In this document: positions 1-25,231 of the stretch, piece by piece
Position numbering within the stretch: the first letter of the stretch is position 1
Layout: each line of letters opens with the position of its first letter
DNA from: a virus
Direction: 5' to 3' (one strand)
Virus record (IMG/VR): IMGVR_UViG_3300044712_002679
Location: 180,406-244,405 of that record
DNA length: 64,000 nt
Position numbers and translations under genes: made by a program
Notes under the pieces: generated by a model
Told to the model about the DNA's origin: nothing
Databases searched by the model: none
The model's input: the letters and a program-made list of their open reading frames with translations, nothing else

Positions 1-156
1 GATAATATATCAACTTTAGATCATGAATATTATGTTTTAAATAAAAAATATTTAAATATAATAACCGATGATAATATTGAAAAATATGCAGAATGGATAG
101 AAGCAAATAAATTAACTGATGAATATTTTTTATTGGAAAACGTGGTTGATGATTAA
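1..156 (+). CDS. 3' end of an upstream ORF (partial). It probably encodes the C-terminal end of a split-intein N-fragment fused to the N-extein of GMP reductase/IMPDH
   Basis: Frame-1 ORF runs from the window edge to TAA at 154-156. Its tail ...[12 protein letters not shown] resembles the end of DnaE-type split N-inteins. It lies immediately upstream of the endonuclease and C-intein genes. Confidence 0.35.
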
Positions 157-204
157 CGAAAAAAAATGAGTTAAACATATTTATATATACAATAAAAAAT
201 AAAT

Positions 205-1230
205 ATGTTAAAAAATAAATTTTTAAAAACAAAAGAATGTGAAATATGTGGAAAAAATTTTAATGGTATTAGTGAAAATTCTGATTATAGGTTATTTTTA
301 AGTCACTTAAAAAATGAACACAATATATCATATGAAGATTATTATACTAAATATTATTTGAATGGTATTAAGCCGAAATGCGAATGTGGGTGTGGTAACG
401 TTACAAAATATTATAAAGGTGAATTTAATAAATATTATGGTGATCATAAAAATAAAACTTTACCAAAAAATAGTTCTATTAATAAAATAAAAGAAAAATT
501 AAAAATTGTAAATAATTTAGAAAATAGATTAATAAAATTAAATTTAACAATTAATGATATCGAAGATGCTTGGGATGATTTTATAAATTTAAATAAATCT
601 ATGTCAATGATTTCAAAAGATTTATCTATTGATTTTAGAACACTTAAAAGTTATTGGTTTGAATTGAAATTAATAGATAATAAAGAAGTTTTTAAGAGAT
701 TTACGTTAAAATCAAAAACAAAATGGTTAAATAAAATAGTTGAACCAAATGATGATAAAAAAGAATATTTAAAAAGTTTAATTCCAAATATTCATAAATA
801 TTTGGAAAATAGAAATAATGTTACAATTGATGAATTAGTTAAGTTTTTTAAATTAGATATTAATAAAAATTATTTTTGTTTATTTTTAGATGATCAATTA
901 AATAATAATGAAATATCAAAAATTAAATTTTTCAAATCATCAAATATTGAAATAGAATTTTTTAATGTTTTGCGGTTTTATTTTGGAAATAGTATAATAC
1001 ATAGTTTTGAATTAGAACATAAAATATTTGACTTTAAATTAGGTAAAAAAATTTTAATAGAATTAGATGGAGAATATTGGCATAATTTTGAACAGTCAAA
1101 GATAAATGATAAATTAAAAAATGAAATCGCTTTAAAAAATGGATATGTATTAATACGTATTAGTGATAAAAATATAAATGATTTAGATAATTTAATAAAA
1201 ATAAAAAAATTATATGACAAATTTAAGTAA
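205..1230 (+). CDS. Free-standing homing-endonuclease-like protein: N-terminal Zn-finger-like Cys/His clusters and a C-terminal Vsr/DUF559-like PD-(D/E)xK nuclease domain
   Basis: 341-aa ORF. C-terminal block ILIELDGEYWHNFEQSKINDKLKNEIALKNGYVLIRISD matches the E-DG-WH..R pattern of Vsr-like endonuclease domains. It sits between the two halves of a split intein. Confidence 0.6.
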   Translation: MLKNKFLKTKECEICGKNFNGISENSDYRLFLSHLKNEHNISYEDYYTKYYLNGIKPKCECGCGNVTKYYKGEFNKYYGDHKNKTLPKNSSINKIKEKLKIVNNLENRLIKLNLTINDIEDAWDDFINLNKSMSMISKDLSIDFRTLKSYWFELKLIDNKEVFKRFTLKSKTKWLNKIVEPNDDKKEYLKSLIPNIHKYLENRNNVTIDELVKFFKLDINKNYFCLFLDDQLNNNEISKIKFFKSSNIEIEFFNVLRFYFGNSIIHSFELEHKIFDFKLGKKILIELDGEYWHNFEQSKINDKLKNEIALKNGYVLIRISDKNINDLDNLIKIKKLYDKFK

Positions 1231-1348
1231 ATATAAACTTGTTGAAATAAAAACGAAAAAAATCGTAAATGATAAAATTCATAAAGTATATGATTTATCA
1301 GTTGAAGATAATCAGAGTTATACAGCAAATAAAATAATTGTTCATAAT
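1214..1348 (+). other. Split-intein C-terminal fragment (IntC, 45 aa) with its own Met start
   Basis: MTNLSKYKLVEIKTKKIVNDKIHKVYDLSVEDNQSYTANKIIVHN, followed by Cys+1. It is closely patterned on DnaE IntC (VYDIGVE.DHNF..NG.IASN), with the terminal HN and a downstream Cys nucleophile. Confidence 0.7.
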
Positions 1349-1924
1349 TGTCTTACATCAAAAAATGTTGGTGTTGGATATCCAATGGCATCATTAATTA
1401 AAGAATGTTATGATATTAGTTGCACATTAGATAAACCAGCAAAGATTGTTGCTGATGGTGGAATGAAAAATTATTCGGATATCATTAAAGCATTGGGTCT
1501 TGGGGCAGATTATTGCATGGTCGGTTCAATTTTTAATCGAGCATTAGAAAGTGCAGGTGAAACATATAAAGCAAATGTTAAACACGTGGGTGTTGAAACT
1601 TGGACTGAACCAGGTGAACCAGTTGATCAATTTTCTGACGATGTGAAAAATGCATTTTTAAATGGTGCTAAATATTTCAAAAAATTTAGGGGTATGAGCA
1701 CAAAAAGTGTTCAAAAATTGCTTGGGAATAAGGTTTTAACGACTTCAGAAGGTGTTACACGTATGAACCAAGTAGAATATACCCTTGAAGGTTGGACTGA
1801 AAATTTTACCCATTATTTGGCTTCTGCAATGTCATATTCAGGTGCTAAAACATTAGATGATTTTATTGGTAAAGCTGATTTTGTTAAAATAACACAGAAC
1901 AGTTTTAATAGATTTAATAAGTAA
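1214..1924 (+). CDS. C-intein plus C-extein of a GMP reductase / IMPDH-family enzyme (C-terminal half of a fractured gene)
   Basis: After VHN|C the extein reads CLTSKNVGVGYP...IVADGG...GADYCMVGS...FRGMSTKS.... This matches the GuaC/IMPDH catalytic-Cys segment (GSxCTTR..GVGYPQ..DGG..GAD.VMLG..YGMSS). Confidence 0.7.
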   Translation: MTNLSKYKLVEIKTKKIVNDKIHKVYDLSVEDNQSYTANKIIVHNCLTSKNVGVGYPMASLIKECYDISCTLDKPAKIVADGGMKNYSDIIKALGLGADYCMVGSIFNRALESAGETYKANVKHVGVETWTEPGEPVDQFSDDVKNAFLNGAKYFKKFRGMSTKSVQKLLGNKVLTTSEGVTRMNQVEYTLEGWTENFTHYLASAMSYSGAKTLDDFIGKADFVKITQNSFNRFNK

Positions 1925-2069
1925 TTGAAATGGATAAATATAATTATATTCCCGATTGGATGATATACACTGATTCAGAAAACGATTCAGAAAAAGAATC
2001 CGACAAAGAATCTGACACAAACCTAAATATGGATGAATATACTATAACTTTTGATTCATATTATTTTTA

Positions 2070-2897
2070 ATGAAAGATTTTTATAATTCATATTTTAGTA
2101 ATGATTGTATATCAGAAATATCTATTGTTAATAATGGTAAAACTATTATATCTAGAGAATTATTTTATGTAGAATTTTCTGATTTTGCTAAAAATACACT
2201 AAATTGTAAAAATGGCTTTTTTGTTGATAATAATAATTATCTAGAAAATATTTATAATAAAACTATTCGATCATCTAATAAAGAAAAAATATTTCTAGAT
2301 AATTCAGATAATAATATTGTGAATATACAATATACTAAAAATTATTATTGTTACATTAAAGTACTTAATGATTATATTAATCCACAATTAAATGGTAAAT
2401 TATTAATTTTTAAATTTGGTTTTTCTATATTACAAAAATTTTTAGAATATTACAATAATATTACGAATATTACAAATATTAATGTAACAGATTTATATTT
2501 TAAACATTCTTTTATTATTAGTAAGTTGCCTACACCACAAAATAGTCTACCTACACCACAAAATAGTCAATATAAAATAATTAAATGTGATTTTACAAAC
2601 AATGAAATTAATTTATATGATGAAAAATTAAATTTAGATAATGTAATATCATTTCCAAAAATTAATATAAATTCTTTAATGCGAAGATATAAATTATCCC
2701 ACCTTAAAGAAATATCAATTGGTAATATAATAATTGAATTAATAAATGATGGTTGGGATATAAATCTAATCAATAAAGATGAAAAAAAAACTTGGATTGC
2801 AAAAAAAGATAATATAAATCTTACTTGTAATGTCGAATTTGATAAACCTGTCGATTGTATACAAAATATGTACGAAACAATTATAAAAAATGAATAA
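2070..2897 (+). CDS. Hypothetical protein with a tandem LPTPQNS duplication
   Basis: 275-aa ORF. In-frame 21-nt tandem repeat at 2523-2564. Confidence 0.5.
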   Translation: MKDFYNSYFSNDCISEISIVNNGKTIISRELFYVEFSDFAKNTLNCKNGFFVDNNNYLENIYNKTIRSSNKEKIFLDNSDNNIVNIQYTKNYYCYIKVLNDYINPQLNGKLLIFKFGFSILQKFLEYYNNITNITNINVTDLYFKHSFIISKLPTPQNSLPTPQNSQYKIIKCDFTNNEINLYDEKLNLDNVISFPKININSLMRRYKLSHLKEISIGNIIIELINDGWDINLINKDEKKTWIAKKDNINLTCNVEFDKPVDCIQNMYETIIKNE

Positions 2898-2949
2898 AAA
2901 ATGAATAAAAAATGAATATATTTGAAATAGGAAATAAAATAACAATAAA

Positions 2950-3366
2950 ATGAGTATACAAGAAACAATAAAAAATGACTTAGTGGTAGCCATGAAGTCT
3001 AAAAATGTAGAAACAACATCTTTATTGAGAGTTGTTTTAGGTGAATTCAGTACTGTAGCTAGTCGAATGCCAAATAATTCTGAAAAAGTATTATCTGATG
3101 ATTTAGCACTTAAAGAAATCCGAAGAATGTATGAAAATGCGAAAATGATGCAAAACCAATTCGAAATTGATACATTAGATAAATATCTTCCTAAAATGCT
3201 TTCCGAAGACCAAATCAAAAATATTATAGTAACTATAATATCTGAAAAAAATATTTCAGGTATACAAAATATGGGTAAAGTTATGGGTGAAATTAAACTT
3301 CTTCCTACTGCTAGTATGATAGATAACAAAATCGCCAGTAATATAGTTAAAGAACTATTAAAATGA
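2950..3366 (+). CDS. GatB/YqeY-domain protein
   Basis: MSIQETIKNDLVVAMKSKNVETTSLLRVVLGEF... resembles the YqeY/GatB C-terminal domain N-terminus (MSLKEQIKEDMKTAMKAKD..L..IR). Confidence 0.5.
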   Translation: MSIQETIKNDLVVAMKSKNVETTSLLRVVLGEFSTVASRMPNNSEKVLSDDLALKEIRRMYENAKMMQNQFEIDTLDKYLPKMLSEDQIKNIIVTIISEKNISGIQNMGKVMGEIKLLPTASMIDNKIASNIVKELLK

Positions 3367-3605
3367 AACCAAACCCTAAATTTAAAAAAGGTGATAGATG
3401 TGTTTTTGTTTATCCTGTGGGTAAAGGTAAAAATAAAAAATGGGAAGTTTTAGATGATAATATGATTATAAATAGTGAACCATTTTGGTATGAAAGGGAT
3501 TGGTATTATAATATAGTCGGAAAAGCAAATCCATGTAATGATGCGTATTTAATTTTATATACAGATTTAAAAAATGACATACTTAACTGCTTGGAGAAAA
3601 GGTGA
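3363..3605 (+). CDS. Hypothetical protein
   Basis: 80-aa ORF. ATGA start/stop overlap with the upstream gene. Confidence 0.4.
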   Translation: MKPNPKFKKGDRCVFVYPVGKGKNKKWEVLDDNMIINSEPFWYERDWYYNIVGKANPCNDAYLILYTDLKNDILNCLEKR

Positions 3606-3825
3606 TTTAGTTAGATTACCAAATGGTGATGAGTTTCGATTAACTTCTGATGGTTATGAAAAACGACCATATCCGTATTGCCAAACCTTTGAGTCGTGGG
3701 AGTTGACCCTCAAATGGGCATTGAACCTGTTCATTACAAAGATGGTAGGTTTTACATTGATGGGCCAACATGGACAGAACAACGTGTGGAATATTAAAAA
3801 CAGGAATAGTGCTAGAGACAAATAA
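3574..3825 (+). CDS. Hypothetical protein
   Basis: 83-aa ORF overlapping the previous gene by 32 nt. Confidence 0.3.
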   Translation: MTYLTAWRKGDLVRLPNGDEFRLTSDGYEKRPYPYCQTFESWELTLKWALNLFITKMVGFTLMGQHGQNNVWNIKNRNSARDK

Positions 3826-3895
3826 ATCATCGTTATGAAATGACACCAGGTAAACAAAAAGAATTTTAGGGTGGATTTTTTATATATAAAAGAAA

Positions 3896-4369
3896 ATGAT
3901 GAAAGATTTGAAAAAGTTTATAGCAACTACTATACGAGAGTATTTGAATGAAAGTATTAATAATATTTTACAAAATTCATTAAAAATTATAGGTGATAAA
4001 TATTCAAAAGAACATAATAAAACACCACAAGAATTAAATAGTGGAGATTGTGAAGATATTGCTTATGATGTTATTGAAAATATTGGTGGTGAAACATCTA
4101 ATACATACATTATAGATGATGGATGGTTTTGGAATATTGACATAAAAAGTAAATATAAAACAGAAAGTGGTGAGTATTGGAATGTGAAAAATTTAAAAAA
4201 ATATGGAGAACCACCATTTGGTTATGACAAGTTAAATAAATTAGATTTAAAAGGTCATGTTTGGATATTTTCAAAAGGAAAACATTATGATGTTGAAACA
4301 TTACAAGGTGTTGATAATTTTTGGTATTTACCAATATACCAAAGACAACTTGCCAACTTGATAATTTAA
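3896..4369 (+). CDS. Hypothetical protein with a CTS-like N-terminus (MKDLKKFIATTIRE)
   Basis: 157-aa ORF. Confidence 0.5.
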   Translation: MMKDLKKFIATTIREYLNESINNILQNSLKIIGDKYSKEHNKTPQELNSGDCEDIAYDVIENIGGETSNTYIIDDGWFWNIDIKSKYKTESGEYWNVKNLKKYGEPPFGYDKLNKLDLKGHVWIFSKGKHYDVETLQGVDNFWYLPIYQRQLANLII

Positions 4370-4380
4370 TATCTTTGTGC
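4362..4380 (+). promoter_or_regulatory. Candidate promoter -7 box TATCTTTG upstream of the 4484 gene
   Basis: aatatctttgtgcg matches TAnnTTTG. Confidence 0.3.
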
Positions 4381-4483
4381 GTTGGGTAAATTCTTTTTGT
4401 TTTTCAATACAAAACACAAATCGAAGAACTGATACTGATAAATACGGTCACCCAATATTAGCAATATTTAAATTTAAATAATA

Positions 4484-4987
4484 ATGAAAAAAACATATCA
4501 AACAATAATAGAAAAAGGTAATGGTAATTGTATGCAAGCCGCATTAGCATCATTATTTAATCTTGAATTAACTGATGTACCACATTTTCTTAGTTATGGT
4601 GAAGATTGTTTTAAAGTGTGGCACGATTTTATAAAAAATCATGGGTATGAACAAACTGGTGTATTATTTAATAAAAACTATAATAGATTATTAGCACCAA
4701 CTGCGTGTTGTTTTAAAAAAGAAGCTTGGTATAGACCTGGACTATTAAGTATAACAAATCTTAAAAAACATGGTGGTGTTGATGGTTTCTTTTATGCAAG
4801 TGTATATTCACCAAAATATTTTAACTATAAAGATGGTTTTATGAATACACACGCTGTTATTGTTGATATTAATTGTAATGTTGTTCATGATCCAAATCCT
4901 GAATATGAAAAAATAATAAAATACCCATTAGCAGACTTACTCAAATTTAATGGTATTCTTGATGTAACATTAATAAAAAAATTGTAA
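4484..4987 (+). CDS. Hypothetical protein, possibly a papain-like Cys peptidase. Its N-terminus MKKTYQTIIEKG is T4-CTS-like
   Basis: 167-aa ORF. GNCMQAALASLF Cys and a downstream NTHAVIVD His give a Cys...His arrangement. Weak evidence. Confidence 0.4.
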   Translation: MKKTYQTIIEKGNGNCMQAALASLFNLELTDVPHFLSYGEDCFKVWHDFIKNHGYEQTGVLFNKNYNRLLAPTACCFKKEAWYRPGLLSITNLKKHGGVDGFFYASVYSPKYFNYKDGFMNTHAVIVDINCNVVHDPNPEYEKIIKYPLADLLKFNGILDVTLIKKL

Positions 4988-5134
4988 ATATGTCTAAATG
5001 TGTAAATGAAAAATGTATCGGAAATGATACGTTTTTTAATAATTGGTTGAAAATATAAAAAATTAAATAATTAAATTTAAACACATTACAAAAAAAAACT
5101 TTATTTTTTTAAAAAACGTGTAAAAAAGTTTTTT

Positions 5135-5166
5135 TAATCAAAATAAAGTTTTTATATTTGCATCAT
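5135..5166 (+). promoter_or_regulatory. Candidate promoter, copy 1 of a repeated upstream element carrying a TAnnTTTG -7 box
   Basis: caaaataaagtttttatatttgcatc is repeated at 5371-5400. TATATTTG matches the Bacteroidetes -7 consensus. It lies about 17 nt before the ATG at 5181. Confidence 0.4.
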
Positions 5167-5180
5167 AATTAATCAGAATA

Positions 5181-5348
5181 ATGGAAAATATAAATAATGT
5201 ATTGACAGAATTGCAAGAAAGACAAAATGATTTTGAAAACCCAAGTTCATATCAAGAATCAGAATGGTATGTGAAATGTAGGGCAAAAGCAGAAGCATTT
5301 GAAGAAGCAATTAACATTGTGAAAAGACATTTTTCAATAAAAGATTAA
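5181..5348 (+). CDS. Small hypothetical protein (56 aa)
   Basis: ATG at 5181 and TAA at 5346-5348. Flanked by repeated promoter-like elements. Confidence 0.25.
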   Translation: MENINNVLTELQERQNDFENPSSYQESEWYVKCRAKAEAFEEAINIVKRHFSIKD

Positions 5349-5370
5349 AAAAAGTGCAAAAAAATTTTTT

Positions 5371-5400
5371 TATTCAAAATAAAGTTTTATATTTGCATCG
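5371..5400 (+). promoter_or_regulatory. Candidate promoter, copy 2 of the repeated element
   Basis: ttcaaaataaagttttatatttgcatcg, about 17 nt before the ATG at 5418. Confidence 0.4.
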
Positions 5401-5417
5401 AAATTAAAACAACAAAA

Positions 5418-5615
5418 ATGAAAACAATAACAATTTGGTTTATGATAATTGCTCTTAAAAAAGCAATCGAAACAAAAGAAAAAGAAACAAATTCTATCTT
5501 AATTAGTGCTTATGAAATATTGATTAAAAATTATAGTGATACAATTATGTTGCTTAAAGCAGAAAGAACAGCTAAAATAGGAAAAATAAAAAATAAACTT
5601 TTTAAAACAAAATAA
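5418..5615 (+). CDS. Small hypothetical protein
   Basis: 65-aa ORF. Confidence 0.3.
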   Translation: MKTITIWFMIIALKKAIETKEKETNSILISAYEILIKNYSDTIMLLKAERTAKIGKIKNKLFKTK

Positions 5616-5760
5616 CTAAAAGAAAATAAATATTTAATTGGTGGTGTAGGGTTAGATTCAAACTCTAAACAATTAAATATTTATTTTAAAAATGGAAAAA
5701 AATGAGTTTTTTATTAAAATATATAATAAAAAATAAACTTTTTAAAACAAAATAACTAGA
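5583..5760. repeat. 33-bp direct repeat (ataaaaaataaactttttaaaacaaaataacta) at 5583-5618 and 5728-5760
   Basis: Identical copies about 145 bp apart. Confidence 0.5.
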
Positions 5761-5942
5761 AATAACAGAAACAAAAATTAATTATTAAAAAAGCAAACAG
5801 AGATGAACCGAAATTATATATATAACGAATGTAACGAAGATATGAATGAAGAAATTTATATCATTGATGATAATTCGATTCAATTTGACTGTGGATGTGG
5901 ATGTATGATATTAGGCTAAATAAAAAAGCAAAATAAAAACAG

Positions 5943-5976
5943 AAAACCCAGTCAACAAAAAAGGCTGGGTTTTTTA
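5943..5976. terminator. Rho-independent terminator-like hairpin
   Basis: aaaacccagtcaacaaaaaaggctgggtttttt. Confidence 0.5.
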
Positions 5977-5979
5977 ATT

Positions 5980-6198
5980 ATGAAAAAAGAAGAAGAAAAA
6001 GAAGTTGTAGAATTAATAGATAAACAAGAAAATTACGAACAACTAAAAAAACAATCAGAATTAACTGAAAAATTTATAAGGTTAGCTGATAATTTGAAAA
6101 TTGATGATAAAGAAATTCCAAAAACTGAAAAAGGTTTGACAACAAAAGCAAAAGAGTTATTGGAAAAAGTTCAAAAAAAGATTGAAAAAGAAATTTAA
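5980..6198 (+). CDS. Small Lys/Glu-rich hypothetical protein
   Basis: 72-aa ORF. Confidence 0.35.
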   Translation: MKKEEEKEVVELIDKQENYEQLKKQSELTEKFIRLADNLKIDDKEIPKTEKGLTTKAKELLEKVQKKIEKEI

Positions 6199-6204: not shown

Positions 6205-6294
6205 TGCGGTGTGGAGAAGTTGGTCATCTCACCTGTCTCATAAGCACGGAGTCCCTAATAAGGTTTAACACAGGTTCAAATCCTGTCGCCGCTA
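6205..6294 (+). pseudogene. Diverged copy of the initiator tRNA gene (anticodon loop CTCATAA) with a broken anticodon stem and about a 21-nt insertion
   Basis: Shares TGCGG.G...CGCCGCTACA ends and the D-arm GAGAAGTTGGTCATCTC with the adjacent tRNA-fMet. T-arm ACAGGTTCAAATCCTGT. The 3' strand of the anticodon stem does not pair. Confidence 0.3.
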
Positions 6295-6308
6295 CAAATA
6301 TCAAACAT

Positions 6309-6381
<73 letters not shown>

Positions 6382-6514
6382 CAAAAATAAATAAAAGTAA
6401 AACGATGAAAAATTGTATGAACATATGTAATTATTGCAACATTAATATTATTAATGATGATGAACGTATGGATTATAGTTTACATTGGATTGGATAAATT
6501 ATACTTAGATGAGT

Positions 6515-6550
6515 AAAAAAGCCAATCCTTAAACAAGATTGGCTTTTTTT
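6515..6550. terminator. Rho-independent terminator-like hairpin
   Basis: aaaaaagccaatccttaaacaagattggcttttttt. Confidence 0.55.
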
Positions 6551-6597
6551 ATTAAAATTGTTCTTTGACATATTGGGAAATAAAATAAAATGATGTA

Positions 6598-6660
6598 ATT
6601 AATCGTCCGATTATCGGATGATTGTTCAAAAAATCGGATGATTTTCGGGCGATTAATTAA
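6598..6660. repeat. Long inverted repeat (taattaatcgtccga ... tcgggcgattaattaa) enclosing direct repeats of atcggatgatt
   Basis: A 14-15-bp stem with one mismatch. Located between tRNA genes. Confidence 0.4.
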
Positions 6661-6662
6661 AT

Positions 6663-6748
6663 GTTGCGGTATGCAAATGGCCTAAGCGAACAGACTTTCA
6701 TTCTGTACTTCTGAAAAGAAGTTGCGGGTTCGACTCCCGTCCGCAATA
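6663..6748 (+). tRNA. Type-II (long variable arm) tRNA with anticodon UUC (Glu), which is non-canonical. Discriminator A73
   Basis: Acceptor GTTGCGG/CCGCAAT, 3-bp D-stem, anticodon stem ACAGA/TCTGT with loop CTTTCAT, variable hairpin ACTTC-TGAAAA-GAAGT, T-arm GCGGGTTCGACTCCCGT. Confidence 0.5.
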
Positions 6749-6756
6749 CTTTTTTA

Positions 6757-6830
6757 TGCTGCTTTCGTATAATTGGAATAGTACCTCAGACCTCAATCTG
6801 GAAAATACGGGTTCGAGTCCCGCAGGCAGT
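6757..6830 (+). tRNA. tRNA-like sequence with a good T-arm. The acceptor and anticodon could not be resolved
   Basis: T-arm CGGGTTCGAGTCCCG at 6806-6822. Confidence 0.2.
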
Positions 6831-6836
6831 ACATTT

Positions 6837-6908
6837 GGCGCATTCGTCTAACGGTTAGGACGTTTGGTTTTCAACCAAAAAATGGGATTTCGATTATCCC
6901 ATGCGCTA
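6837..6908 (+). tRNA. tRNA-Glu (TTC)
   Basis: Acceptor GGCGCAT/ATGCGCT, D-arm GTCTAACGGTTAGGAC, anticodon stem TTTGG/CCAAA with loop TTTTCAA, T-arm GGGATTTCGATTATCCC. Confidence 0.8.
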
Positions 6909-6984
6909 CTAATGAATAAAGAAAACATTCAGCAAACAAAAATTGACTGCAAATCAAACAAAACCGTTTTCTGTTTCATATTTT

Positions 6985-7068
6985 GGTCTCGGGGGCTGCT
7001 TGGTGTGGCCGCCTGCCTGTCACGCAGGAACCGTAAGGATCAGGAGGGTTCGAATCCCTTCGGGACCG
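6985..7068 (+). tRNA. tRNA-Asp (GTC) with an unusual 15-nt variable region
   Basis: Acceptor GGTCTCG/CGGGACC, anticodon stem CCTGC/GCAGG with loop CTGTCAC, insert AACCGTAAGGATCAG before the T-arm GAGGGTTCGAATCCCTT. Confidence 0.55.
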
Positions 7069-7079
7069 CATTTAAATTG

Positions 7080-7170
7080 GGGTGCGTTGCTTCATGGGGT
7101 CTGTAAAACCCTTCTGCGTTAACAAAATAGAAGCTGGTGGCAGTTTTGAGGTTCAATTCCTTCGTATCCC
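7080..7170 (+). tRNA. D-arm-less tRNA-like gene with a Tyr-type anticodon hairpin (GTA)
   Basis: Acceptor GGGTGCG/CGTATCC, a 9-nt linker, hairpin GGGGT-CTGTAAA-ACCCT, a 35-nt region with a D-loop-like GCTGGTGGC, T-arm GAGGTTCAATTCCTT. Confidence 0.35.
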
Positions 7171-7192
7171 ACAAATTGAACGCAAATTATAT

Positions 7193-7265
7193 GGTGAAGA
7201 AGCTAGTATGGTACAGCTACGGTCTGTTAAACCGAGGATAGTGGGATCGTTACCCACCTTCACCG
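7193..7265 (+). tRNA. tRNA-Asn (GTT)
   Basis: Perfect acceptor GGTGAAG/CTTCACC, D-arm GCTAGTATGGTACAGC, anticodon loop CTGTTAA, T-arm GTGGGATCGTTACCCAC. Confidence 0.75.
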
Positions 7266-7322
7266 CAATATACTGTACTTCGAGAAGAAGGTAATGATAA
7301 GAATCATTCAGTACTATTTTTT

Positions 7323-7398
7323 GGTGCGTTGAGCGTACATGAGTACGAACCTGGCTGTCACCCAGGTAAAACTAGGGGTTCGATACCCCTACGCACCG
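7323..7398 (+). tRNA. tRNA-Asp (GTC)
   Basis: Perfect acceptor GGTGCGT/ACGCACC, anticodon stem CCTGG/CCAGG with loop CTGTCAC, T-arm AGGGGTTCGATACCCCT. Confidence 0.75.
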
Positions 7399-7403
7399 CA
7401 AAC

Positions 7404-7485
7404 TGTGGTGTATTCAGCCGATCCTGATAAGATCGAGAACTTGTAATTGGTATTGTAAATGTGGGTTCAAGTCCCACCACCACAA
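7404..7485 (+). tRNA. D-arm-less tRNA-like gene with an Ile-type anticodon hairpin (GAT)
   Basis: Perfect acceptor TGTGGTG/CACCACA, an 8-nt linker, hairpin CGATC-CTGATAA-GATCG, a 25-nt region containing GTAATTGGTAT, T-arm GTGGGTTCAAGTCCCAC. Confidence 0.45.
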
Positions 7486-7650
7486 CATTTAGACAACAAC
7501 GGGGGACTTTAGTTATCTCAATGGTTATCAGCATGAGGTATCTAAAATAGTTTAGTGATATTTTTTCGTAAATATTAAAACCTATTTGAAATCTTATTCG
7601 TATTAATAAACAACTTAGAAAATAAGAAAAATTAAATAAAGCTGATTTAT

Positions 7651-7735
7651 GGAAGTATTGGGCAACTGGTTGCCTAGCGGGCCGTAACCCCGTGATCTTA
7701 CGATATTGGGGGTTCGAATCCCTCTGCTTCCACCA
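7651..7735 (+). tRNA. tRNA with a 13-nt variable region, anticodon probably GTA, CCA encoded
   Basis: Acceptor GGAAGTA/TGCTTCC then ACCA. D-arm GGGCAACTGGTTGCC, anticodon stem GCGGG/CCCGT with loop CCGTAAC (C33 is unusual), T-arm GGGGGTTCGAATCCCTC. Confidence 0.5.
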
Positions 7736-7788
7736 TCGAAAATAACAAAAAATGACTTTATTTATTTAATATATAGAATAAAAACTAA

Positions 7789-8494
7789 TATGAAAAATAA
7801 ATGGTCAAAAAATAACTTATTTGATGTTATTAATACATCAAATAATAAAATTGAAGTTTTAACAAAACTTAAATTAACAATATTTACGGGAAATTATGAT
7901 ACATTAAATAAATACATTAAAAAATATAATATAGATATATCACACTTTAAACGAAATCATAATATAGATAATTTAAATAATTTTAAAAAAATTGATTTAA
8001 AAAATATATTAGTAGAAAATTCAACCTATAGTCGATCTAAATTAAAAGAAAGATTATATAAAGAAGGTTTAAAAGAAAGAAAATGTGAAAAATGTGGGCA
8101 AGATGAAGAATGGAATGGTGATCATATTAGTTTAATTCTAGATCACATCAATGGTATTAATGATGATAATAGAATAGAAAATTTAAGAATACTTTGTCCA
8201 AATTGTAATGCTACATTAGACACACATTGTGGAAAAAATGTTAAAGATAAAAGCAAAACAAATATAACTATCAAAACAAAAAATGACAAATATTGTTTAT
8301 GTGGTAAGAATATAGACAAAAGATCAAAAAAATGCAAATCTTGTAATAACATAGAATTATCTATATTGCAACGTAAAGTTGAAAGACCAACATATGATAC
8401 ATTATTAAAAAATATTGAAGATTTTGGATATTCTGGTACAGGAAGAATATATAATGTAAGTGATAATACAATACGAAAATGGATAAAAAAATAA
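7789..8494 (+). CDS. HNH homing endonuclease, paralogous to 25232-26077
   Basis: CEKCGQDEEWNGDHISLILDHINGINDDNRIENLRILCPNCNATLDTHCGKN is an HNH/Zn motif. The likely start is MKNKWS at 7789, downstream of the tRNA at 7651-7735. It is embedded in the tRNA cluster, like segB in the T4 tRNA region. Confidence 0.7.
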
Positions 8495-8495
8495 A

Positions 8496-8580
8496 GGGGG
8501 TATCGCATAGCGGCAATTGCAATTGACTGTAAATCAATCGTCTTATGGCTTCGTAGGTTCGAGTCCTACTACCCCCACCA
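8496..8580 (+). tRNA. tRNA-Tyr (GTA), bacterial type II with a long variable region, CCA encoded
   Basis: Acceptor GGGGGTA/TACCCCC then ACCA. Anticodon stem ATTGA/TCAAT with loop CTGTAAA, a 14-nt variable region, T-arm GTAGGTTCGAGTCCTAC. Confidence 0.75.
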
Positions 8581-8584
8581 AATT

Positions 8585-8656
8585 GGAAGTGTAGCTCAGA
8601 GGCAGAGCGTTTGCCCGTTAAGCAAGGGGTCGAGATTTCGAAATTCTCCATTTCCG
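8585..8656 (+). tRNA. tRNA, anticodon probably GTT (C33 in the loop CCGTTAA is unusual)
   Basis: Acceptor GGAAGTG/CATTTCC, D-arm GCTCAGAGGCAGAGC, T-region GAGATTTCGAAATTCTC. Confidence 0.5.
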
Positions 8657-8660
8657 CAAT

Positions 8661-8733
8661 GGTGTTGTAGTTCAGTGTGTAGAATAAGGCGTTGTCTGCG
8701 CCAAGGTCGTGAGTTCGAGTCTCATCAGCACCG
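8661..8733 (+). tRNA. tRNA, anticodon unresolved (loop TTGTCTG)
   Basis: Acceptor GGTGTTG/CAGCACC, T-arm GTGAGTTCGAGTCTCAT. Confidence 0.5.
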
Positions 8734-8738
8734 CATAA

Positions 8739-8812
8739 GGTAGTGTAGCTCAGTTGGTTAGAGCGGCGGACTGTTAATCCGTAGGTCGGGGGATCGTAAC
8801 CCTCCACTACCG
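8739..8812 (+). tRNA. tRNA-Asn (GTT)
   Basis: Perfect acceptor GGTAGTG/CACTACC, D-arm TAGCTCAGTTGGTTAGAGC, anticodon region GGCGGACTGTTAATCCGTA identical to E. coli tRNA-Asn. Confidence 0.8.
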
Positions 8813-8822
8813 CAAAATTATT

Positions 8823-8906
8823 GCACAATTGGTCGAGTGGCTTAGGCAACGGTCTGCAAAATCGTAACGGAGAAATCCTACGGGGGTTCGAATCCCTCAT
8901 TGTGCT
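8823..8906 (+). tRNA. tRNA with anticodon GCA (Cys) and discriminator U73, but a Leu/Ser-type D-arm and a 15-nt variable arm
   Basis: Perfect acceptor GCACAAT/ATTGTGC, D-arm GTCGAGTGGCTTAGGC, anticodon stem ACGGT/ATCGT with loop CTGCAAA, variable hairpin GGAGAAATCC, T-arm GGGGGTTCGAATCCCTC. Confidence 0.55.
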
Positions 8907-8950
8907 CTTTTTAAATAAAAACAAATTCAAATTATTTATATGTTAAAAAT

Positions 8951-9034
8951 ATCGTAGTGCGCAGAGTTGGTCTATTGCAGTGGGCTCATATCCCACCATC
9001 TTTGATATCGTGAGTTCGAATCTCACCTACGATA
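8951..9034 (+). tRNA. tRNA with a CAT anticodon (elongator Met or Ile2 type) and a 13-nt variable region
   Basis: Perfect acceptor ATCGTAG/CTACGAT, anticodon stem GTGGG/CCCAC with loop CTCATAT, T-arm GTGAGTTCGAATCTCAC. Confidence 0.55.
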
Positions 9035-9047
9035 CGGTAAATTTAAT

Positions 9048-9124
9048 GGGAATCTAGCTCAATTGGTCAGAGCATCTCGCTGATACCGAGAAGGTTGCAG
9101 ATTCGAGTTCTGCGTTTCCCACCA
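9048..9124 (+). tRNA. tRNA-Ile (GAT), CCA encoded
   Basis: Acceptor GGGAATC/GTTTCCC then ACCA. D-arm TAGCTCAATTGGTCAGAGCA, anticodon stem CTCG/CGAG with loop CTGATAC, T-arm GCAGATTCGAGTTCTGC. Confidence 0.8.
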
Positions 9125-9127
9125 AAT

Positions 9128-9205
9128 ATCGGTGTATCTCAACTGGCTTATACCCAGGCATAACTGAGTAATTGGTGTATGTGGGTTCGAGTCCCACCTC
9201 CGATA
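9128..9205 (+). tRNA. D-arm-less tRNA-like gene with an anticodon hairpin TAT (Ile-AUA type)
   Basis: Acceptor ATCGGTG/CTCCGAT, an 8-nt linker, hairpin CTGG-CTTATAC-CCAG, a 23-nt region containing GTAATTGGTGT (same motif as 7404-7485), T-arm GTGGGTTCGAGTCCCAC. Confidence 0.4.
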
Positions 9206-9243
9206 CAAATCCATTATAATAAGGCAAGTAAAAAATCTTGTAA

Positions 9244-9310
9244 TCATAGGGTAGCGTGTCCGCAGCTAATTGGGGATAAGTTGGTGATAATCCCAATCAC
9301 GTCCTATGAT
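9244..9310 (+). ncRNA. Structured RNA-like element (function unknown), possibly a T-arm-less tRNA-like fold
   Basis: Outer helix ATCATAGG/CCTATGAT, D-arm-like AGC-GTGTCCGCA-GCT, and a 6-bp hairpin TTGGGG...TCCCAA with a 15-nt loop. Confidence 0.2.
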
Positions 9311-9319
9311 GGGTTTTAT

Positions 9320-9394
9320 AGTGCTGTAGTTCAGATTGGTTAGAATACTAGACTGTCACTCTAGTGGTCACGGGTTCGAATCCCGCCAGCACTG
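9320..9394 (+). tRNA. tRNA-Asp (GTC)
   Basis: Perfect acceptor AGTGCTG/CAGCACT, D-arm TAGTTCAGATTGGTTAGAATA, anticodon stem CTAGA/TCTAG with loop CTGTCAC, T-arm CGGGTTCGAATCCCG. Confidence 0.75.
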
Positions 9395-9403
9395 CAATAA
9401 TTT

Positions 9404-9541
9404 GGGGAAGATGGCAATGGTTTACATTATTATGATAATTCTAATAAAAATGTACAATTTATTAATCATGATATGTAAATTGGCAAGCAAGGAAGGCTCG
9501 TACACCTTCTACCTGAAAAGGTTACTGTTGGTTCGAATCCA
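9404..9541 (+). tRNA. tRNA-like gene interrupted by about a 70-nt structured insertion (intron-like or pseudogene)
   Basis: Acceptor GGGGAAG...TCTCCCC, T-arm GTTGGTTCGAATCCAGC. The insert tttacatt...atgtaaa carries inverted repeats. Confidence 0.4.
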
Positions 9542-9557
9542 GCTCTCCCCACAAAAT

Positions 9558-9719
9558 AATTTTATTTGGAGAAATAGCTCAGTTGGTAGAGCAACGTAAA
9601 AAGAAAAAAACGTAATTTGTATTTGATATTCGAAGTCAAAAAATTAAAAATTATGTACAGCAAACCAAAATCTAAGCATGTAAAGCCGTGTGTCGGGGGT
9701 TCAAGTCCTTCTTTCTCCA
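9558..9719 (+). tRNA. tRNA-like gene with about a 95-nt insertion between the D-arm and T-arm
   Basis: Perfect acceptor GGAGAAA/TTTCTCC, canonical D-arm TAGCTCAGTTGGTAGAGCA, T-arm GGGGGTTCAAGTCCTTC. Internal candidate anticodon hairpin TTGAT-ATTCGAA-GTCAA (TCG). Confidence 0.4.
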
Positions 9720-9738
9720 CGAATATGTTTTTAAAATT

Positions 9739-9814
9739 GGGGTATGGCTTAGTCGGGTCTAAAGCAACTGTGACTGATGTGCAGGAGATCATTGGTTCGA
9801 ATCCAGTTGCCCCT
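9739..9814 (+). tRNA. tRNA, anticodon unresolved
   Basis: Acceptor GGGGTAT/TTGCCCC, D-arm GCTTAGTCGGGTCTAAAGC, T-arm ATTGGTTCGAATCCAGT. Confidence 0.5.
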
Positions 9815-9857
9815 ACAAAATGATAACTTATCAGATTTATATATACAAATAAAAAGT

Positions 9858-10811
9858 ATGTACGACAAAAACAATAAAGAGACAATATGGCAAAGAACGG
9901 AAGAAAATATGTTTACAGATATTCTTTTCGATTTTATACCATTTAAGCATGATGCATGTGAAGAAACGTGGGAAGCATATTATACTTATGGTGATCCTTG
10001 TTTTATTGAAGGTTTAAAAAATTGCATTAAAAAAGTTTATAGAACAGGTTGGAAAGCTAAAATATTTGGTGAATATTATTATCAGCTACAAAGGTGGCCG
10101 ACATCATATGAAAATATGATAGGAATGTCGAGGGATCATTTGATTTATGTATTTTCTGCATTATACAAATATGGGATATCTTCAGATGAATTACACGAAT
10201 ATGTTTCACATTTAAGACCTGTTGTTAGTACGACAATTGGGATGCATATGACATTTGAACTTTGGTTATGGTTAAAATTGATATCAAAACGGAAAATAGG
10301 TATTTTATATTATCCTTGGCGATTGGTTGGTTCGACTTTAAATATGTTGTGGACTAAGTTAATTTACAAATTAGCAAATTGGCCAGAAGAATTATCATTA
10401 GATGAATATTGGCCTCGTAGAGATGAAAGACTTAATAAATCATTTAAGGATAGGATATTTTCATCGTTGGTAGCACCTGTATATTCTAGAAAATTGACTT
10501 CGACAAAAGTAAGTTTATTACCTGATAATTGGTGGACAAAATCAATTAAAAAGATTGAATTAATGACAACGACAAGATATAATTATGTTTTGCGAATGTT
10601 GAATGGTGATAAAACAGTTAAAAGGGAAGATATTGAAGCATATCATTCTATTCTATATTATAGATGGTCTGATTCATTTGAACCATGGCGAACAGTCCGT
10701 TGGATGACAGAGATTCCCAAAGATCGTGGATATGATTTAGTTAATATATATCATATAAATCAAATAGATAGGGATTATGCATTAAAAATATATGATGAAT
10801 TAATAGGATAA
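9858..10811 (+). CDS. Hypothetical protein
   Basis: ORF 9777-10811 trimmed to Met at 9858 (MYDKNNKETIW), downstream of the tRNA ending at 9814. Confidence 0.55.
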   Translation: MYDKNNKETIWQRTEENMFTDILFDFIPFKHDACEETWEAYYTYGDPCFIEGLKNCIKKVYRTGWKAKIFGEYYYQLQRWPTSYENMIGMSRDHLIYVFSALYKYGISSDELHEYVSHLRPVVSTTIGMHMTFELWLWLKLISKRKIGILYYPWRLVGSTLNMLWTKLIYKLANWPEELSLDEYWPRRDERLNKSFKDRIFSSLVAPVYSRKLTSTKVSLLPDNWWTKSIKKIELMTTTRYNYVLRMLNGDKTVKREDIEAYHSILYYRWSDSFEPWRTVRWMTEIPKDRGYDLVNIYHINQIDRDYALKIYDELIG

Positions 10812-10895
10812 AAATATTTGCATCGGAAGGTGTAATTTGCCTTTATGTAAAAGTGTAATAATTACGTAATAAAAGCACATAATGTAATAAGGGTA

Positions 10896-10965
10896 CGTGA
10901 CATAGGTCAGGGGTAGACCGCTGGTGCGAAACCAGAAGTCGGTGGTTCGAGTCCATCTGTCGCAA
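10896..10965 (+). tRNA. tRNA, anticodon unresolved (loop TGCGAAA)
   Basis: T-arm GGTGGTTCGAGTCCATC, acceptor CGTGACA/TGTCGCA, D-arm GGTCAGGGGTAGACC. Confidence 0.45.
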
Positions 10966-10966
10966 C

Positions 10967-11114
10967 GAAGATTCCTGGCAGTGGTGATGTCAGCTACACA
11001 GGTAGGTGTGGTGTCTTAACAGACTAAGTTAATGTAAAAATTTAAAATTAGTTGAATAATATTGCGCATAAAAATTTAATGAAATTAAATTAGGTTCGAA
11101 TCCCTTGATCTTCA
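10967..11114 (+). tRNA. tRNA-like gene with about a 75-nt insertion
   Basis: Acceptor GAAGATT/GATCTTC with a T-loop GGTTCGAATCCCTT. The ends are 148 nt apart. Confidence 0.35.
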
Positions 11115-11119
11115 CGATT

Positions 11120-11190
11120 GGTAATATAGTTTAACGAATAGAATGGCTGCGAGTCAGCAGTTGATGGTGGTTTGATTCCATCTGTTACCG
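11120..11190 (+). tRNA. tRNA, anticodon unresolved
   Basis: Acceptor GGTAATA/TGTTACC, T-arm GGTGGTTTGATTCCATC. Confidence 0.45.
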
Positions 11191-11193
11191 CAA

Positions 11194-11264
11194 AATAATA
11201 TAGCTTAATTGGATAGAGTTGCCGTATTAGCGGTATGGTGTTGGTTCGAATCCTTCTATTATTA
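11194..11264 (+). tRNA. tRNA-like, anticodon unresolved, with an all-A/T acceptor stem
   Basis: Acceptor AATAATA/TATTATT, D-arm TAGCTTAATTGGATAGAGT, T-loop GGTTCGAATCC. Confidence 0.4.
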
Positions 11265-11282
11265 CAAAAAAACACAATTATT

Positions 11283-11504
11283 ATGGAAAAGACAGCATTT
11301 CAATCACGTATTGAAAAGGAAAATGAAGTTTTAAAATTTTTAAATCGTGAAATTTTAAAAAGTGCAAAGAAAGGTGATTATCATTATTATTGGGATATCA
11401 CAGGGTTGAGTGATTATATGATAAAAGGTATAATTGCAACATTAGAAAAGGAAGGTAAATTCATTAAAAGTAAAGGAACAAATTTCAAAATTATACATTG
11501 GTAA
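11283..11504 (+). CDS. Hypothetical protein
   Basis: ORF trimmed to MEKTAFQ at 11283, after the tRNA at 11194-11264. Confidence 0.4.
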   Translation: MEKTAFQSRIEKENEVLKFLNREILKSAKKGDYHYYWDITGLSDYMIKGIIATLEKEGKFIKSKGTNFKIIHW

Positions 11505-11519
11505 TTTAATATATAATGT

Positions 11520-12146
11520 ATGATAAAATTATTTGAAGAATATACAAAAATAGATAAAATTGATACATTTATTAATTTTATGAAACAATATAAATTAACA
11601 GAAATTATAATTGATTCTGAACTTGATAAATATATTATTAATAGTATCAAATTTAATAAGAGATATGATAAATATGTGTTAAATTATCAAGCTATTAATA
11701 GACCATATATTGAAGTTGAATTATCAAGTTTATCATCATCATTTATAGATAATTTGTATGTTTTATGTAAAACTGAAGATTTATTCAATATAGAAAATCA
11801 ATTAAATTCGACTTCGATTGATTTTGATAATTTTGTTAACATCTTAAAAAATTGCAAAGAAAAAATTAATTTTAATAAAGATATGTTTACATCATTATGT
11901 GATTCAGGATGGGTTGAAGATATTAATAAATTTAACTTTCAAGATATATTATTTTCAACACATCCAGAATCATATAAACCATTTTTGGATGAATGTTTTT
12001 TACACTTAGAATACAAAAATGATGATCCAACATTAGAAGAAATGGTTTTACATCCAAAGATTTTAATTAAGTATAATTCATTATTGGGTGATTATTATAA
12101 ACAAAAATTAATGGAACAAAAAGCAAAAAAATACAATATAATTTAA
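11520..12146 (+). CDS. Hypothetical protein of the CTS-like family (N-terminus MIKLFEEY, C-terminus KKYNII)
   Basis: 208-aa ORF. The N- and C-termini are shared with the 34172-37318 array. Confidence 0.55.
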   Translation: MIKLFEEYTKIDKIDTFINFMKQYKLTEIIIDSELDKYIINSIKFNKRYDKYVLNYQAINRPYIEVELSSLSSSFIDNLYVLCKTEDLFNIENQLNSTSIDFDNFVNILKNCKEKINFNKDMFTSLCDSGWVEDINKFNFQDILFSTHPESYKPFLDECFLHLEYKNDDPTLEEMVLHPKILIKYNSLLGDYYKQKLMEQKAKKYNII

Positions 12147-12473
12147 AAATTAAAAAACTTACGAAATGGACACAATGATGATTGACACAGAGTATAAAAC
12201 CGAATTCATTAGAATAATGGATGAAGTTTTCGAAGATTTTGATTTTGATTTTGAATTGGATTTTAGTATATTTAGTATATTTAAATCAAAAAAATCAAAA
12301 GAATAAAAACACTAAAATTGCTGAAAAGAAAAACCAAGAATATTATTTGGGGTATAATTGGAATTGTTTTTTGTGTATTATTTTTACCAATACTGTTTCC
12401 AATATATATTATCTTATTTATATTTATTGCGATATTTGATAATAAAGAATAATTTTATTTCCCAATATAAAAT

Positions 12474-12554
12474 GCCTCAGTATTAGCACTGTCTTCGAAA
12501 CAGTAGTCGTATAGCGGATAATGAAAAACGTGGGTTCGAATCCCTCCTGGGGTA
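12474..12554 (+). tRNA. D-arm-less tRNA-like gene with an Arg-type anticodon hairpin (TCG)
   Basis: Acceptor GCCTCAG/CTGGGGT with two G:U pairs, a 7-nt linker, hairpin ACTGT-CTTCGAA-ACAGT, a 25-nt region with ATAGCGGATA, T-arm GTGGGTTCGAATCCCTC. Confidence 0.4.
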
Positions 12555-12664
12555 CGATGTAAAAGGGTTAAATGATGATTAATAGGGTCTATTTTTAAAT
12601 CTAGATTAATAAATAAGACTATTGATATGTAATTTTTCGTGACAGTTCAAATCTGTCTACATCA
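12555..12664 (+). tRNA. tRNA-like gene with an internal insertion
   Basis: Acceptor CGATGTA/TACATCA (6 of 7 pairs) and T-arm GACAGTTCAAATCTGTC. The ends are about 110 nt apart. Confidence 0.3.
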
Positions 12665-12682
12665 CAAATATATTTAAATGAT

Positions 12683-12756
12683 GTGCTTATGGTGTAAATG
12701 GAAACATACCTGAATACGAATCAGGCGACTTGAAGGTTCGAATCCTTCTAGGCATA
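12683..12756 (+). tRNA. tRNA-Arg (ACG)
   Basis: Acceptor GTGCTTA/TAGGCAT, anticodon stem CCTGA/TCAGG with loop ATACGAA, a 5-nt variable region, T-arm GAAGGTTCGAATCCTTC. Confidence 0.75.
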
Positions 12757-12854
12757 CAAAAGTTCAGAAACAGGAAGATATTTTGTTACTGATATTAAAA
12801 GTGATAGAAAATAAATTCGATAATTTGATGACCCGCTTAATTTTTTAACAAATT

Positions 12855-24943: not shown

Positions 24944-25015
24944 TGCTTTTTAATGTAATGGTTAGCATATAACACTTTGACTGTTAGAGTCTTGGTTCGA
25001 ATCCAAGGGAGGCAA
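24944..25015 (+). tRNA. tRNA-Gln-like (TTG) with a G:U-rich acceptor
   Basis: Acceptor TGCTTTT/GGAGGCA, D-arm ATGTAATGGTTAGCAT, anticodon stem TAACA/TGTTA with loop CTTTGAC, T-arm CTTGGTTCGAATCCAAG. Confidence 0.5.
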
Positions 25016-25027
25016 CAAAACAAAAAT

Positions 25028-25098
25028 AGCCTTGTAGCATAATGAAGTGCTCCATCCTTTGAAGATGTAAGGTATCGGTTCAAGTCCGATCAAGGCTT
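25028..25098 (+). tRNA. tRNA-Gln (TTG)
   Basis: Perfect acceptor AGCCTTG/CAAGGCT, D-arm GCATAATGAAGTGC, anticodon stem CATC/GATG with loop CTTTGAA, T-arm ATCGGTTCAAGTCCGAT. Confidence 0.75.
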
Positions 25099-25099
25099 C

Positions 25100-25171
25100 A
25101 ATCTTTTGGTGTAATGGTCAGCATATAATTTTCTGAAATTTAAGATATTGGTTCGATTCCAATAAAGATTA
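25100..25171 (+). tRNA. tRNA-Gln (CTG), probable
   Basis: Perfect acceptor AATCTTT/AAAGATT, D-arm GTGTAATGGTCAGCATAT, anticodon loop TTCTGAA, T-arm ATTGGTTCGATTCCAAT. Confidence 0.55.
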
Positions 25172-25231
25172 CAAATGTCCATAGTGGTATTTTTTCGATA
25201 TTTTTTATTTATATATAAATAAAAAAACACT

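Follow-up and report, generated by a model that had tools for sequence, protein, structure and literature searches.

A fractured phage gene of the IMPDH/GMP reductase superfamily with a predicted split intein at its catalytic cysteine

Overview

At the start of the 64,000-nucleotide (nt) stretch of viral DNA analysed here (IMG/VR record IMGVR_UViG_3300044712_002679, positions 180,406-244,405; hereafter the window), a gene of the IMPDH/GMP reductase (GMPR) family is found in two halves, with the gene of a free-standing endonuclease between them. The locus occupies window positions 1-1924 on the + strand, and the upstream part of its N-half, which lies outside the window, was taken from an identical overlapping Logan contig (L001) and from cluster records. 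The explanation favored in this study, with a probability of roughly 0.88, is that this is a fractured phage gene in which each half carries one piece of a split intein, the halves are joined by trans-splicing, and the cassette made up of the intein pieces and the intervening EDxHD endonuclease gene is mobile. The halves and the endonuclease have recognizable homologues and retain their catalytic residues, all parts of the locus are under purifying selection, and the cassette is present in some relatives and absent from others. Dassa et al. (2009; NAR 37:2560, PMC2677866) described three metagenomic IMPDH loci in which a split intein occupies one integration point and a Vsr-like free-standing endonuclease gene lies between its halves. 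An initial annotation of the window had proposed this same 'fractured gene' arrangement, and the locus does match it, with split-intein halves at one locus and on one strand and a free-standing endonuclease gene between them.

Under the favored explanation, the N-half (278 amino acids (aa), with an acidic N-intein) and the C-half (236 aa, with a basic C-intein) would be translated separately. The intein pieces would then associate and trans-splice by way of Cys1, the block B Thr and His, the penultimate His, the terminal Asn and Cys+1, roles that are assigned by homology. Splicing would yield a product of 366 aa in which the active-site loop ...GVGNGGG-C-LTSK... is rebuilt. Because the +1 nucleophile is also the catalytic Cys of the enzyme, neither half nor the unspliced complex is expected to be active. 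We infer that the targets of the endonuclease are alleles that are unoccupied or lack the endonuclease, and that repair would copy the cassette of N-intein, endonuclease and C-intein into the cut allele; Dassa et al. proposed homing of the endonuclease into the intein. Translation of the endonuclease is probably held back by a putative hairpin in which its start codon would be buried.

The two halves and their intein pieces

The initial annotation had read the open reading frame (ORF) at 1214-1924 as opening with a 45-aa split C-intein that runs into the catalytic-Cys segment of a GuaC/IMPDH enzyme, and both Pfam and tblastn place the boundary at residues 45/46. The Pfam IMPDH model matches C-half residues 46-122 (expect value (E) 3.8e-22; 79 bits against a threshold of 25.6), and when phage genomes were searched by tblastn, each of the 34 matching records aligned only from residue 45 or 46. 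Residues 1-45 therefore do not belong to the host enzyme, the extein of which starts at Cys46. The best of these matches were the huge-phage assemblies LR756500-LR756504, Lak phages and a crAss-like phage. Some uninterrupted proteins seemingly covered 95-99% of the C-half query; this coverage was an artefact of BLAST extension, and no C-intein is present in them. The C-intein, whose coding sequence shares the final 17 nt of the endonuclease gene in a different frame, is 38% identical to the C-intein of IMPDH-1 (sequence from the supplement of Pinto et al. 2020, PMC7090010). It carries blocks F and G, ending ...IIVHN with the penultimate His and terminal Asn, followed by Cys+1 (VYDLSVEDNQSYTANKIIVHN|C) and the extein CLTSKNVGVGYPMASL. 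The same ending occurs in 23 C-halves, with HN|C found in 19 C-halves of the catalytic-Cys site.

The frame that closes with the stop codon at 154-156 had been taken for the tail of a split N-intein, and translation of window positions 1-156 in frame 1 does match the IMPDH-1 N-intein at residues 56-97 (tblastn E 5e-6). Contig L001 (SRR26046407, 6,599 bp) is 100% identical to the window across the whole 5,614-bp overlap and reaches 985 bp further upstream, where it supplies the N-extein, Cys1 (block A) and the remainder of the N-intein leading to TLDH (block B). The block A and B motifs and the N-terminal half, whose absence would have refuted the initial annotation, are therefore present. Cys1 directly follows the N-extein (GVGNGGG|CFVENTKV), and this residue (C176) is invariant in 49 aligned N-halves, as are T232 and H235 of the block B TxxH motif (TLDH, window nt 13-24). 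The N-intein aligns with that of IMPDH-1 over 97 aa without gaps, at 37% identity (BLASTP E 1e-23), a match far better than chance would give. The net charge is -12 for the N-intein and +3 for the C-intein. The two intein parts reside on separate polypeptides, as the N-half has its own stop (154-156) and the C-half its own ATG (1214); this Met start is conserved among relatives, and both ORFs are full length.

A second sample (ERR7015351) also contains this N-half with the beginning of the endonuclease gene after it, and N-half, endonuclease and C-half are each recorded on one Joint Genome Institute (JGI) contig of 501,337 bp. A single-protein query with the N-half gave no match in IMG/VR, and an alignment query was required to find relatives there; the scan with this query returned 526, of which the best 80 were analysed. 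A megablast search with window positions 1-6000 against phage genomes found no close DNA relatives.

The host enzyme

Joining the exteins gives a protein of 366 aa with the loop GVGNGGG-CLTSKNVGVGYPMASL (junction GVGNGGG-CLTSKNVGVGYPMAS), which is collinear with uninterrupted homologues; the peptide expected across the ligation junction is ...IGVGNGGGCLTSK.... The uninterrupted proteins P0030/L083, P0096, P0110 and P0111 read GVGNGGGCLTS(K/Q)NVG(V/I)GYP(M/L)AS across the junction (GVGNGGGCLTSKNVGVGYPMAS in P0030), and L002 and approximately 50 IMG/VR loci are likewise uninterrupted at this point. Human GMPR1 and GMPR2 are the best solved relatives of the joined product (E ~3e-28) and align with it end to end. 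Cys+1 lies opposite the Cys of the human GMP reductase catalytic loop GVGPGSVCTTR, in agreement with the earlier proposal that the insertion falls exactly at the active-site Cys.

The more specific identification as a GMP reductase stood in part. GMP reductase is the best-matching family, with GMP-reductase models ranking first in NCBIfam, but the best of them (NF003470) scores 122.6 bits against an equivalog cut-off of 397. The PHROGs label for the family is 'dehydrogenase'. Because the scores are far under the NCBIfam equivalog cut-offs, the enzyme is called GMPR-like rather than GMP reductase: judged from its sequence, it belongs to the IMPDH/GMPR superfamily and resembles GMPR, but it is not a proven GuaC.

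The intervening endonuclease gene

A spacer of 48 nt and three in-frame stops separate the N-half from the endonuclease gene. A Vsr/DUF559-like nuclease had been suggested for the 341-aa product, and sequence and fold both point that way. The best sequence match is PDB 3R3P, the catalytic domain of I-Bth0305I (E 1.3e-5 with the single sequence, 8.6e-7 with the family profile). The AlphaFold (AF2) model (predicted local distance difference test score (pLDDT) 83.8) likewise has 3R3P as its top Foldseek match (template modelling (TM) score 0.67-0.72), with DUF559-like 3HRL next. Across the 35 sequences of the family alignment, Pfam matches were REase_MTES_1575 (20/35), DUF2726 (12/35), DUF559 (9/35), ROS_MUCR (4/35), which is a zinc-finger family, and zf-BED (1/35). 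In the same alignment the Cys and His residues of the finger and of the CxCGC cluster, a helical motif (D143/R145/T146/W151) and the nuclease residues E286, D288, H293, D302, K305 and R318 are invariant or nearly so, with the catalytic E286, D288, H293 and D302 fully invariant. The part containing the zinc finger and Cys cluster is presumed to be a DNA-binding module. Homologues of the same length numbered 37, many of them annotated by JGI as 'very-short-patch-repair endonuclease', and several lie on contigs whose length equals that of a contig with an N-half match. Coordinates of the features of the locus are collected in Table 1.

An inverted repeat spans the start of the endonuclease gene. 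Its 5' arm, ACATATTTAT, is invariant in 6 related loci, and the changes in the 3' arm among related loci are all G-U compatible. The 3' arm also resembles the T4-type late-promoter motif TATAAATA, and the corresponding arm of L085, the closest complete relative with an occupied site, contains the exact motif (TATAAATATG). A scan for sigma-70 promoters returned counts equal to those of shuffled sequences, and a terminator scan found none. Genes use no Shine-Dalgarno sequences anywhere in the window, and the missing Shine-Dalgarno sequence before the C-half is therefore uninformative.

Table 1. Features of the fractured GMPR-like locus; positions are those of the window unless contig L001 is named.
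Feature	Position	Strand	Description
N-half ORF	L001 305-1141		278 aa; final 156 nt = window 1-156
N-extein	L001 305-829		175 aa; IMPDH Pfam match; ends ...RIGVGNGGG (ADYVRIGVGNGGG)
N-intein	from L001 830		103 aa; begins CFVENTKVIT (CFVENTKVITKRG)
N-half gene, 3' end	1..156	+	last 51 aa of the 103-aa N-intein, including block B TLDH; TAA stop at 154-156
11-bp inverted repeat	174..209	+	AACATATTTAT...ATAAATATGTT; as RNA, the stem would pair the endonuclease start codon (205-207)
Free-standing homing-endonuclease gene	205..1230	+	341 aa
C2H2 zinc-finger-like motif	238..321	+	endonuclease N-terminus; C12, C15, H34, H39; then CxCGC cluster (C59, C61, C63)
Vsr-like 'EDxHD' nuclease domain	940..1164	+	E286, D288, H293, D302, K305, R318
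C-half ORF	1214-1924	+	236 aa; ATG at 1214; frame other than that of the N-half
Split C-intein	1214..1348	+	45 aa; MTNLSKYKLVEIKT...VYDLSVEDNQSYTANKIIVHN; blocks F and G
Cys+1 codon (TGT)	1349..1351	+	+1 nucleophile of the intein = catalytic Cys of the IMPDH/GMPR active-site loop
C-extein	1349..1924	+	191 aa plus stop; IMPDH/GMP-reductase family

Insertion sites among related loci

More than 100 loci similar to the fractured GMPR-like locus were identified in public metagenomes. Insertion sites were compared first in the 120 best N-half homologues, the majority of which read GIGNGGG|C and approximately 27 of which read GIGNG|C. A larger sample contained 127 N-halves with the intein at the catalytic Cys (the Cys site) and 53 with the intein two residues upstream (the -2 site), making the Cys site the commoner of the two. 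Among the C-halves, the catalytic Cys is at +1 in 19 and at +3 in 4 (S-G-C or C-G-C). For 176 of 181 N-inteins the nearest neighbour occupies the same site, with IMPDH-1 falling within the -2 group; from these sequence comparisons, the N-inteins of the two sites appear to form largely separate groups. Because the N-inteins group by site, the window intein is regarded as a sister lineage of IMPDH-1 and not as an allele of it. No description of a Cys-site split-intein lineage was found in the literature searched.

The best 80 IMG/VR relatives include many empty sites as well as split inteins at each of the two sites, and three or more types of endonuclease lie between the halves. In L009 (6777-6996, 218-nt gap) and L010 (6810-6901, 90-nt gap), Cys-site split inteins occur without an endonuclease gene; these loci could represent either states that follow loss of the endonuclease or possible target alleles for it. 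At the -2-site locus L063 (2694-3722), the Vsr-type endonuclease is split into ORFs of 104 and 187 aa, which suggests decay of the endonuclease following fixation. A third split-intein site, IKALALG|C...HN|SDYVMIGS, was found in L019 (6001-8693; IMGVR_UViG_3300037104_000796), with an N-intein of 134 aa and an intervening 382-aa ORF of a different type. An exhaustive representative search also identified contiguous mini-inteins, among them P0310, P0316 and P0324 at the Cys site and P0383 and P0391 at the -2 site. P0330 (717 aa) has at its -2 site a contiguous intein that includes a LAGLIDADG endonuclease domain, and in the truncated protein P0340 (434 aa; GIGGG|C...HN|SACTTRFLAG|CFAAGTK) the active-site region holds two inteins separated by nine residues. 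All stages of the gene-breaking model of Dassa et al. are thus represented within one host gene family.

Selection, mobility and alternative explanations

The relative L085 served as the reference for the ratio of nonsynonymous to synonymous substitution rates (dN/dS) and for nucleotide identity. Measured against L085, the N-intein has a dN/dS of 0.13, the endonuclease 0.20 and the C-intein 0.35, and the exteins fall in the range 0.15-0.40; all parts are therefore under purifying selection. Nucleotide identity across the cassette is 90% in the N-intein, 86% in the spacer, 86% in the endonuclease gene and 80% in the C-intein, and only 71% and 78% in the two exteins. The closest relative of the exteins is instead L083 (81% and 87.5% identical), which has an empty site, the uninterrupted allele reading around GGTAATGGTGGTGGA|TGCTTGACATCAAAAAATG. 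The guanine-plus-cytosine (GC) content of the cassette (17-22%) is also lower than that of the exteins (27-33%), in a window that is AT-rich as a whole (24% GC). Incongruence of this kind between cassette and exteins, seen here in few sequences, is the expected signature of homing. The higher conservation of the cassette and the coexistence of empty and occupied alleles are indirect evidence that the endonuclease may cut the unoccupied allele. The same architecture recurs in many independent assemblies.

Several observations weigh against the favored explanation. Splicing, cleavage specificity and enzyme activity are all ascribed to the locus through homology. Matches between the joined intein and solved inteins are weak (best E 0.002; gp41-1, PDB 6QAZ, E 0.23), and the Pfam Intein_splicing match to C-half residues 14-45 (E 2.8e-5, 24.4 bits) falls below the gathering threshold of 35.8. 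The signature of mobility consists of one pairwise comparison (L085) plus one empty allele (L083). In addition, the putative hairpin shows no compensatory covariation among the 6 loci, and its folding energy is ordinary, being no better than that of shuffled sequences (z -0.8); for these two reasons its role as a control element is rated as suggestive. Set against the solved-intein matches, the sequence homology to the biochemically validated IMPDH-1 is much stronger evidence for a splicing intein.

The levels of selection also bear on the alternative that the gene is dead, that is, that an endonuclease, with or without intein remnants, has disrupted a GMPR-like gene and that the ORFs are its decaying, inactive fragments. 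Decay of the endonuclease is known at the related locus L063, where it remains as two ORFs, and auxiliary metabolic genes of phages are dispensable. Nevertheless, this alternative is unlikely, since every segment has a dN/dS within 0.13-0.40, the splicing residues are all intact and are invariant in dozens of homologues, both ORFs are full length with starts conserved among relatives, and more than 100 N-halves fall in the same length class.

Another alternative, slightly less probable still, is that the halves work as a non-covalent heterodimer held together by the intein pieces, without splicing. Split-intein halves do bind tightly, and a sequence alone is no proof of splicing chemistry. However, in such a complex the catalytic Cys would be left attached to the terminal Asn of the intein and the active-site loop would be broken by approximately 148 residues. 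In addition, strict conservation of the nucleophiles and of the block B, F and G residues is sensible only under selection for splicing, and the homologue IMPDH-1 splices efficiently. That an assembly or frameshift artefact conceals a truly contiguous intein with an in-frame endonuclease domain is very improbable: inteins in one piece are known at the Cys site and its neighbour (the mini-inteins P0310, P0316 and P0324, and P0330 with its LAGLIDADG domain), but here the N-half is followed by three in-frame stops and a 48-nt spacer, the C-half lies in another frame with a conserved Met start, and the architecture recurs for the exact sequence in two independent samples, and also at many divergent loci.

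Implications

The locus in the window is a clean and complete fractured gene, for which sequences exist of the two halves, of the endonuclease, and of an empty-site allele and a close relative with the site occupied. To the IMPDH-1 family, a common tool of protein engineering, it adds a sister lineage with Cys rather than Ser at +1 and the native junction GGG/CLT, a possible source of new orthogonal split inteins. With its empty sites, mini-inteins, LAGLIDADG intein and split inteins with three endonuclease types or none, the host gene family offers a good system for studying the origins of split inteins.

A more ambitious joint reading is also conceivable, although we consider it doubtful: the GGG|C inteins, numerically dominant in the sample, would form a distinct, possibly undescribed lineage sister to IMPDH-1 in which the catalytic thiol of the enzyme serves as the +1 splicing nucleophile. 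If splicing were sensitive to a ligand or to redox state, given the disulfide that Cys1 and Cys+1 could form, huge phages could switch guanine-nucleotide interconversion post-translationally. If the reading were true, the two sites, which lie two residues apart and sometimes share an endonuclease type, would also document 'register-shifted' ectopic homing.

Genomic setting

The content of the window is compatible with the genome of a huge phage of approximately 500 kb. No other inteins were found in the window. ARAGORN predicted 25 tRNA genes on the + strand in two clusters (6205-12757 and 24944-25172). Several of the predicted tRNAs that are not class II are longer than usual: 91 nt for Met at 6205, 87 nt for Glu at 6663, 85 nt for both Asp at 6985 and Cys at 8823, and 97 nt for Arg at 12459. 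The calls at 6758 and 11194 have odd two-base anticodons. Such long or odd calls could reflect introns or variant structures, or could be false positives of the kind that AT-rich DNA produces. A sugar-modification cluster is also present, made up of a 1,752-aa ORF that carries several glycosyltransferase domains and, after it, genes for UDP-N-acetylglucosamine (UDP-GlcNAc) 2-epimerase and polysaccharide biosynthesis (37851-47575, + strand).

A separate free-standing homing endonuclease is encoded at 56549-58474 on the - strand (phrog_3339, E 3e-100; Pfam DUF7487 repeats; core EFNGLYWHS), adjoining a gene for a gp32-like single-stranded DNA-binding protein (58535-59467). The initial annotation had raised the possibility that this protein and the endonuclease in the fractured gene share one nuclease domain, which the comparison did not bear out: BLASTP detected no similarity between the two, and hhalign gave only a weak match of the core (E 4e-4, probability 35%).

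Comparison with known systems

The nearest counterparts are the fractured IMPDH loci of Dassa et al. (PMC2677866), which, like the present locus, are of phage or metagenomic origin. The locus shares with IMPDH-1, -2 and -3 the host enzyme family, insertion in the active-site loop and the order N-half, Vsr-like endonuclease, C-half on one strand. Its putative hairpin at the endonuclease start, with a TATAAATA-like element, resembles those described for the Dassa loci. The intein itself is homologous to IMPDH-1, with an identical split point and the same charge polarity (N-intein acidic, C-intein basic), and IMPDH-1 trans-splices in vivo as well as in vitro (PMC11168065, PMC7090010). In contrast, the host of IMPDH-1 is a canonical IMPDH and not a GMPR-like enzyme, and its endonuclease is reported by Dassa et al. 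to have NUMOD-3 repeats where a C2H2 zinc finger and Cys cluster are found here. The junction differs as well: that of IMPDH-1 is GGG|SIC, with Ser at +1 and the catalytic Cys at +3, whereas here it is GGG|CLT, two residues downstream, with the catalytic Cys at +1. Because the insertion points differ by two residues, the window intein is not a strict allele of IMPDH-1; the offset parallels the one-residue offset between NrdA and NrdJ noted by Dassa et al.

The endonuclease compares best with I-Bth0305I (PDB 3R3P), the prototype of the EDxHD (Vsr-like) homing-endonuclease family; the motif is used as defined in PMC3239194. Both proteins conserve the E, D, H and D positions of a C-terminal nuclease, and both have more than one domain, DNA binding being ascribed to a separate part at the N-terminus. 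As far as tested, the two N-terminal domains are not related to each other, and cleavage by the window protein is putative. In addition, I-Bth0305I is encoded in a group I intron of a phage recA gene, whereas the window endonuclease is encoded between the halves of a split intein.

Other well-known split inteins (cyanobacterial DnaE, gp41-1 and NrdJ-1) resemble the window intein in the size of their pieces (N-intein of approximately 100 aa, C-intein of approximately 35-45 aa) and in the predicted chemistry of trans-splicing, but their sequence similarity to it is marginal. The halves of DnaE, moreover, are encoded at distant loci and without an endonuclease. The host gene, the intein family and the endonuclease family of the present locus have thus already been published together, and current understanding is unchanged by it; its sole notable departure from the known loci is the insertion register at the catalytic Cys.

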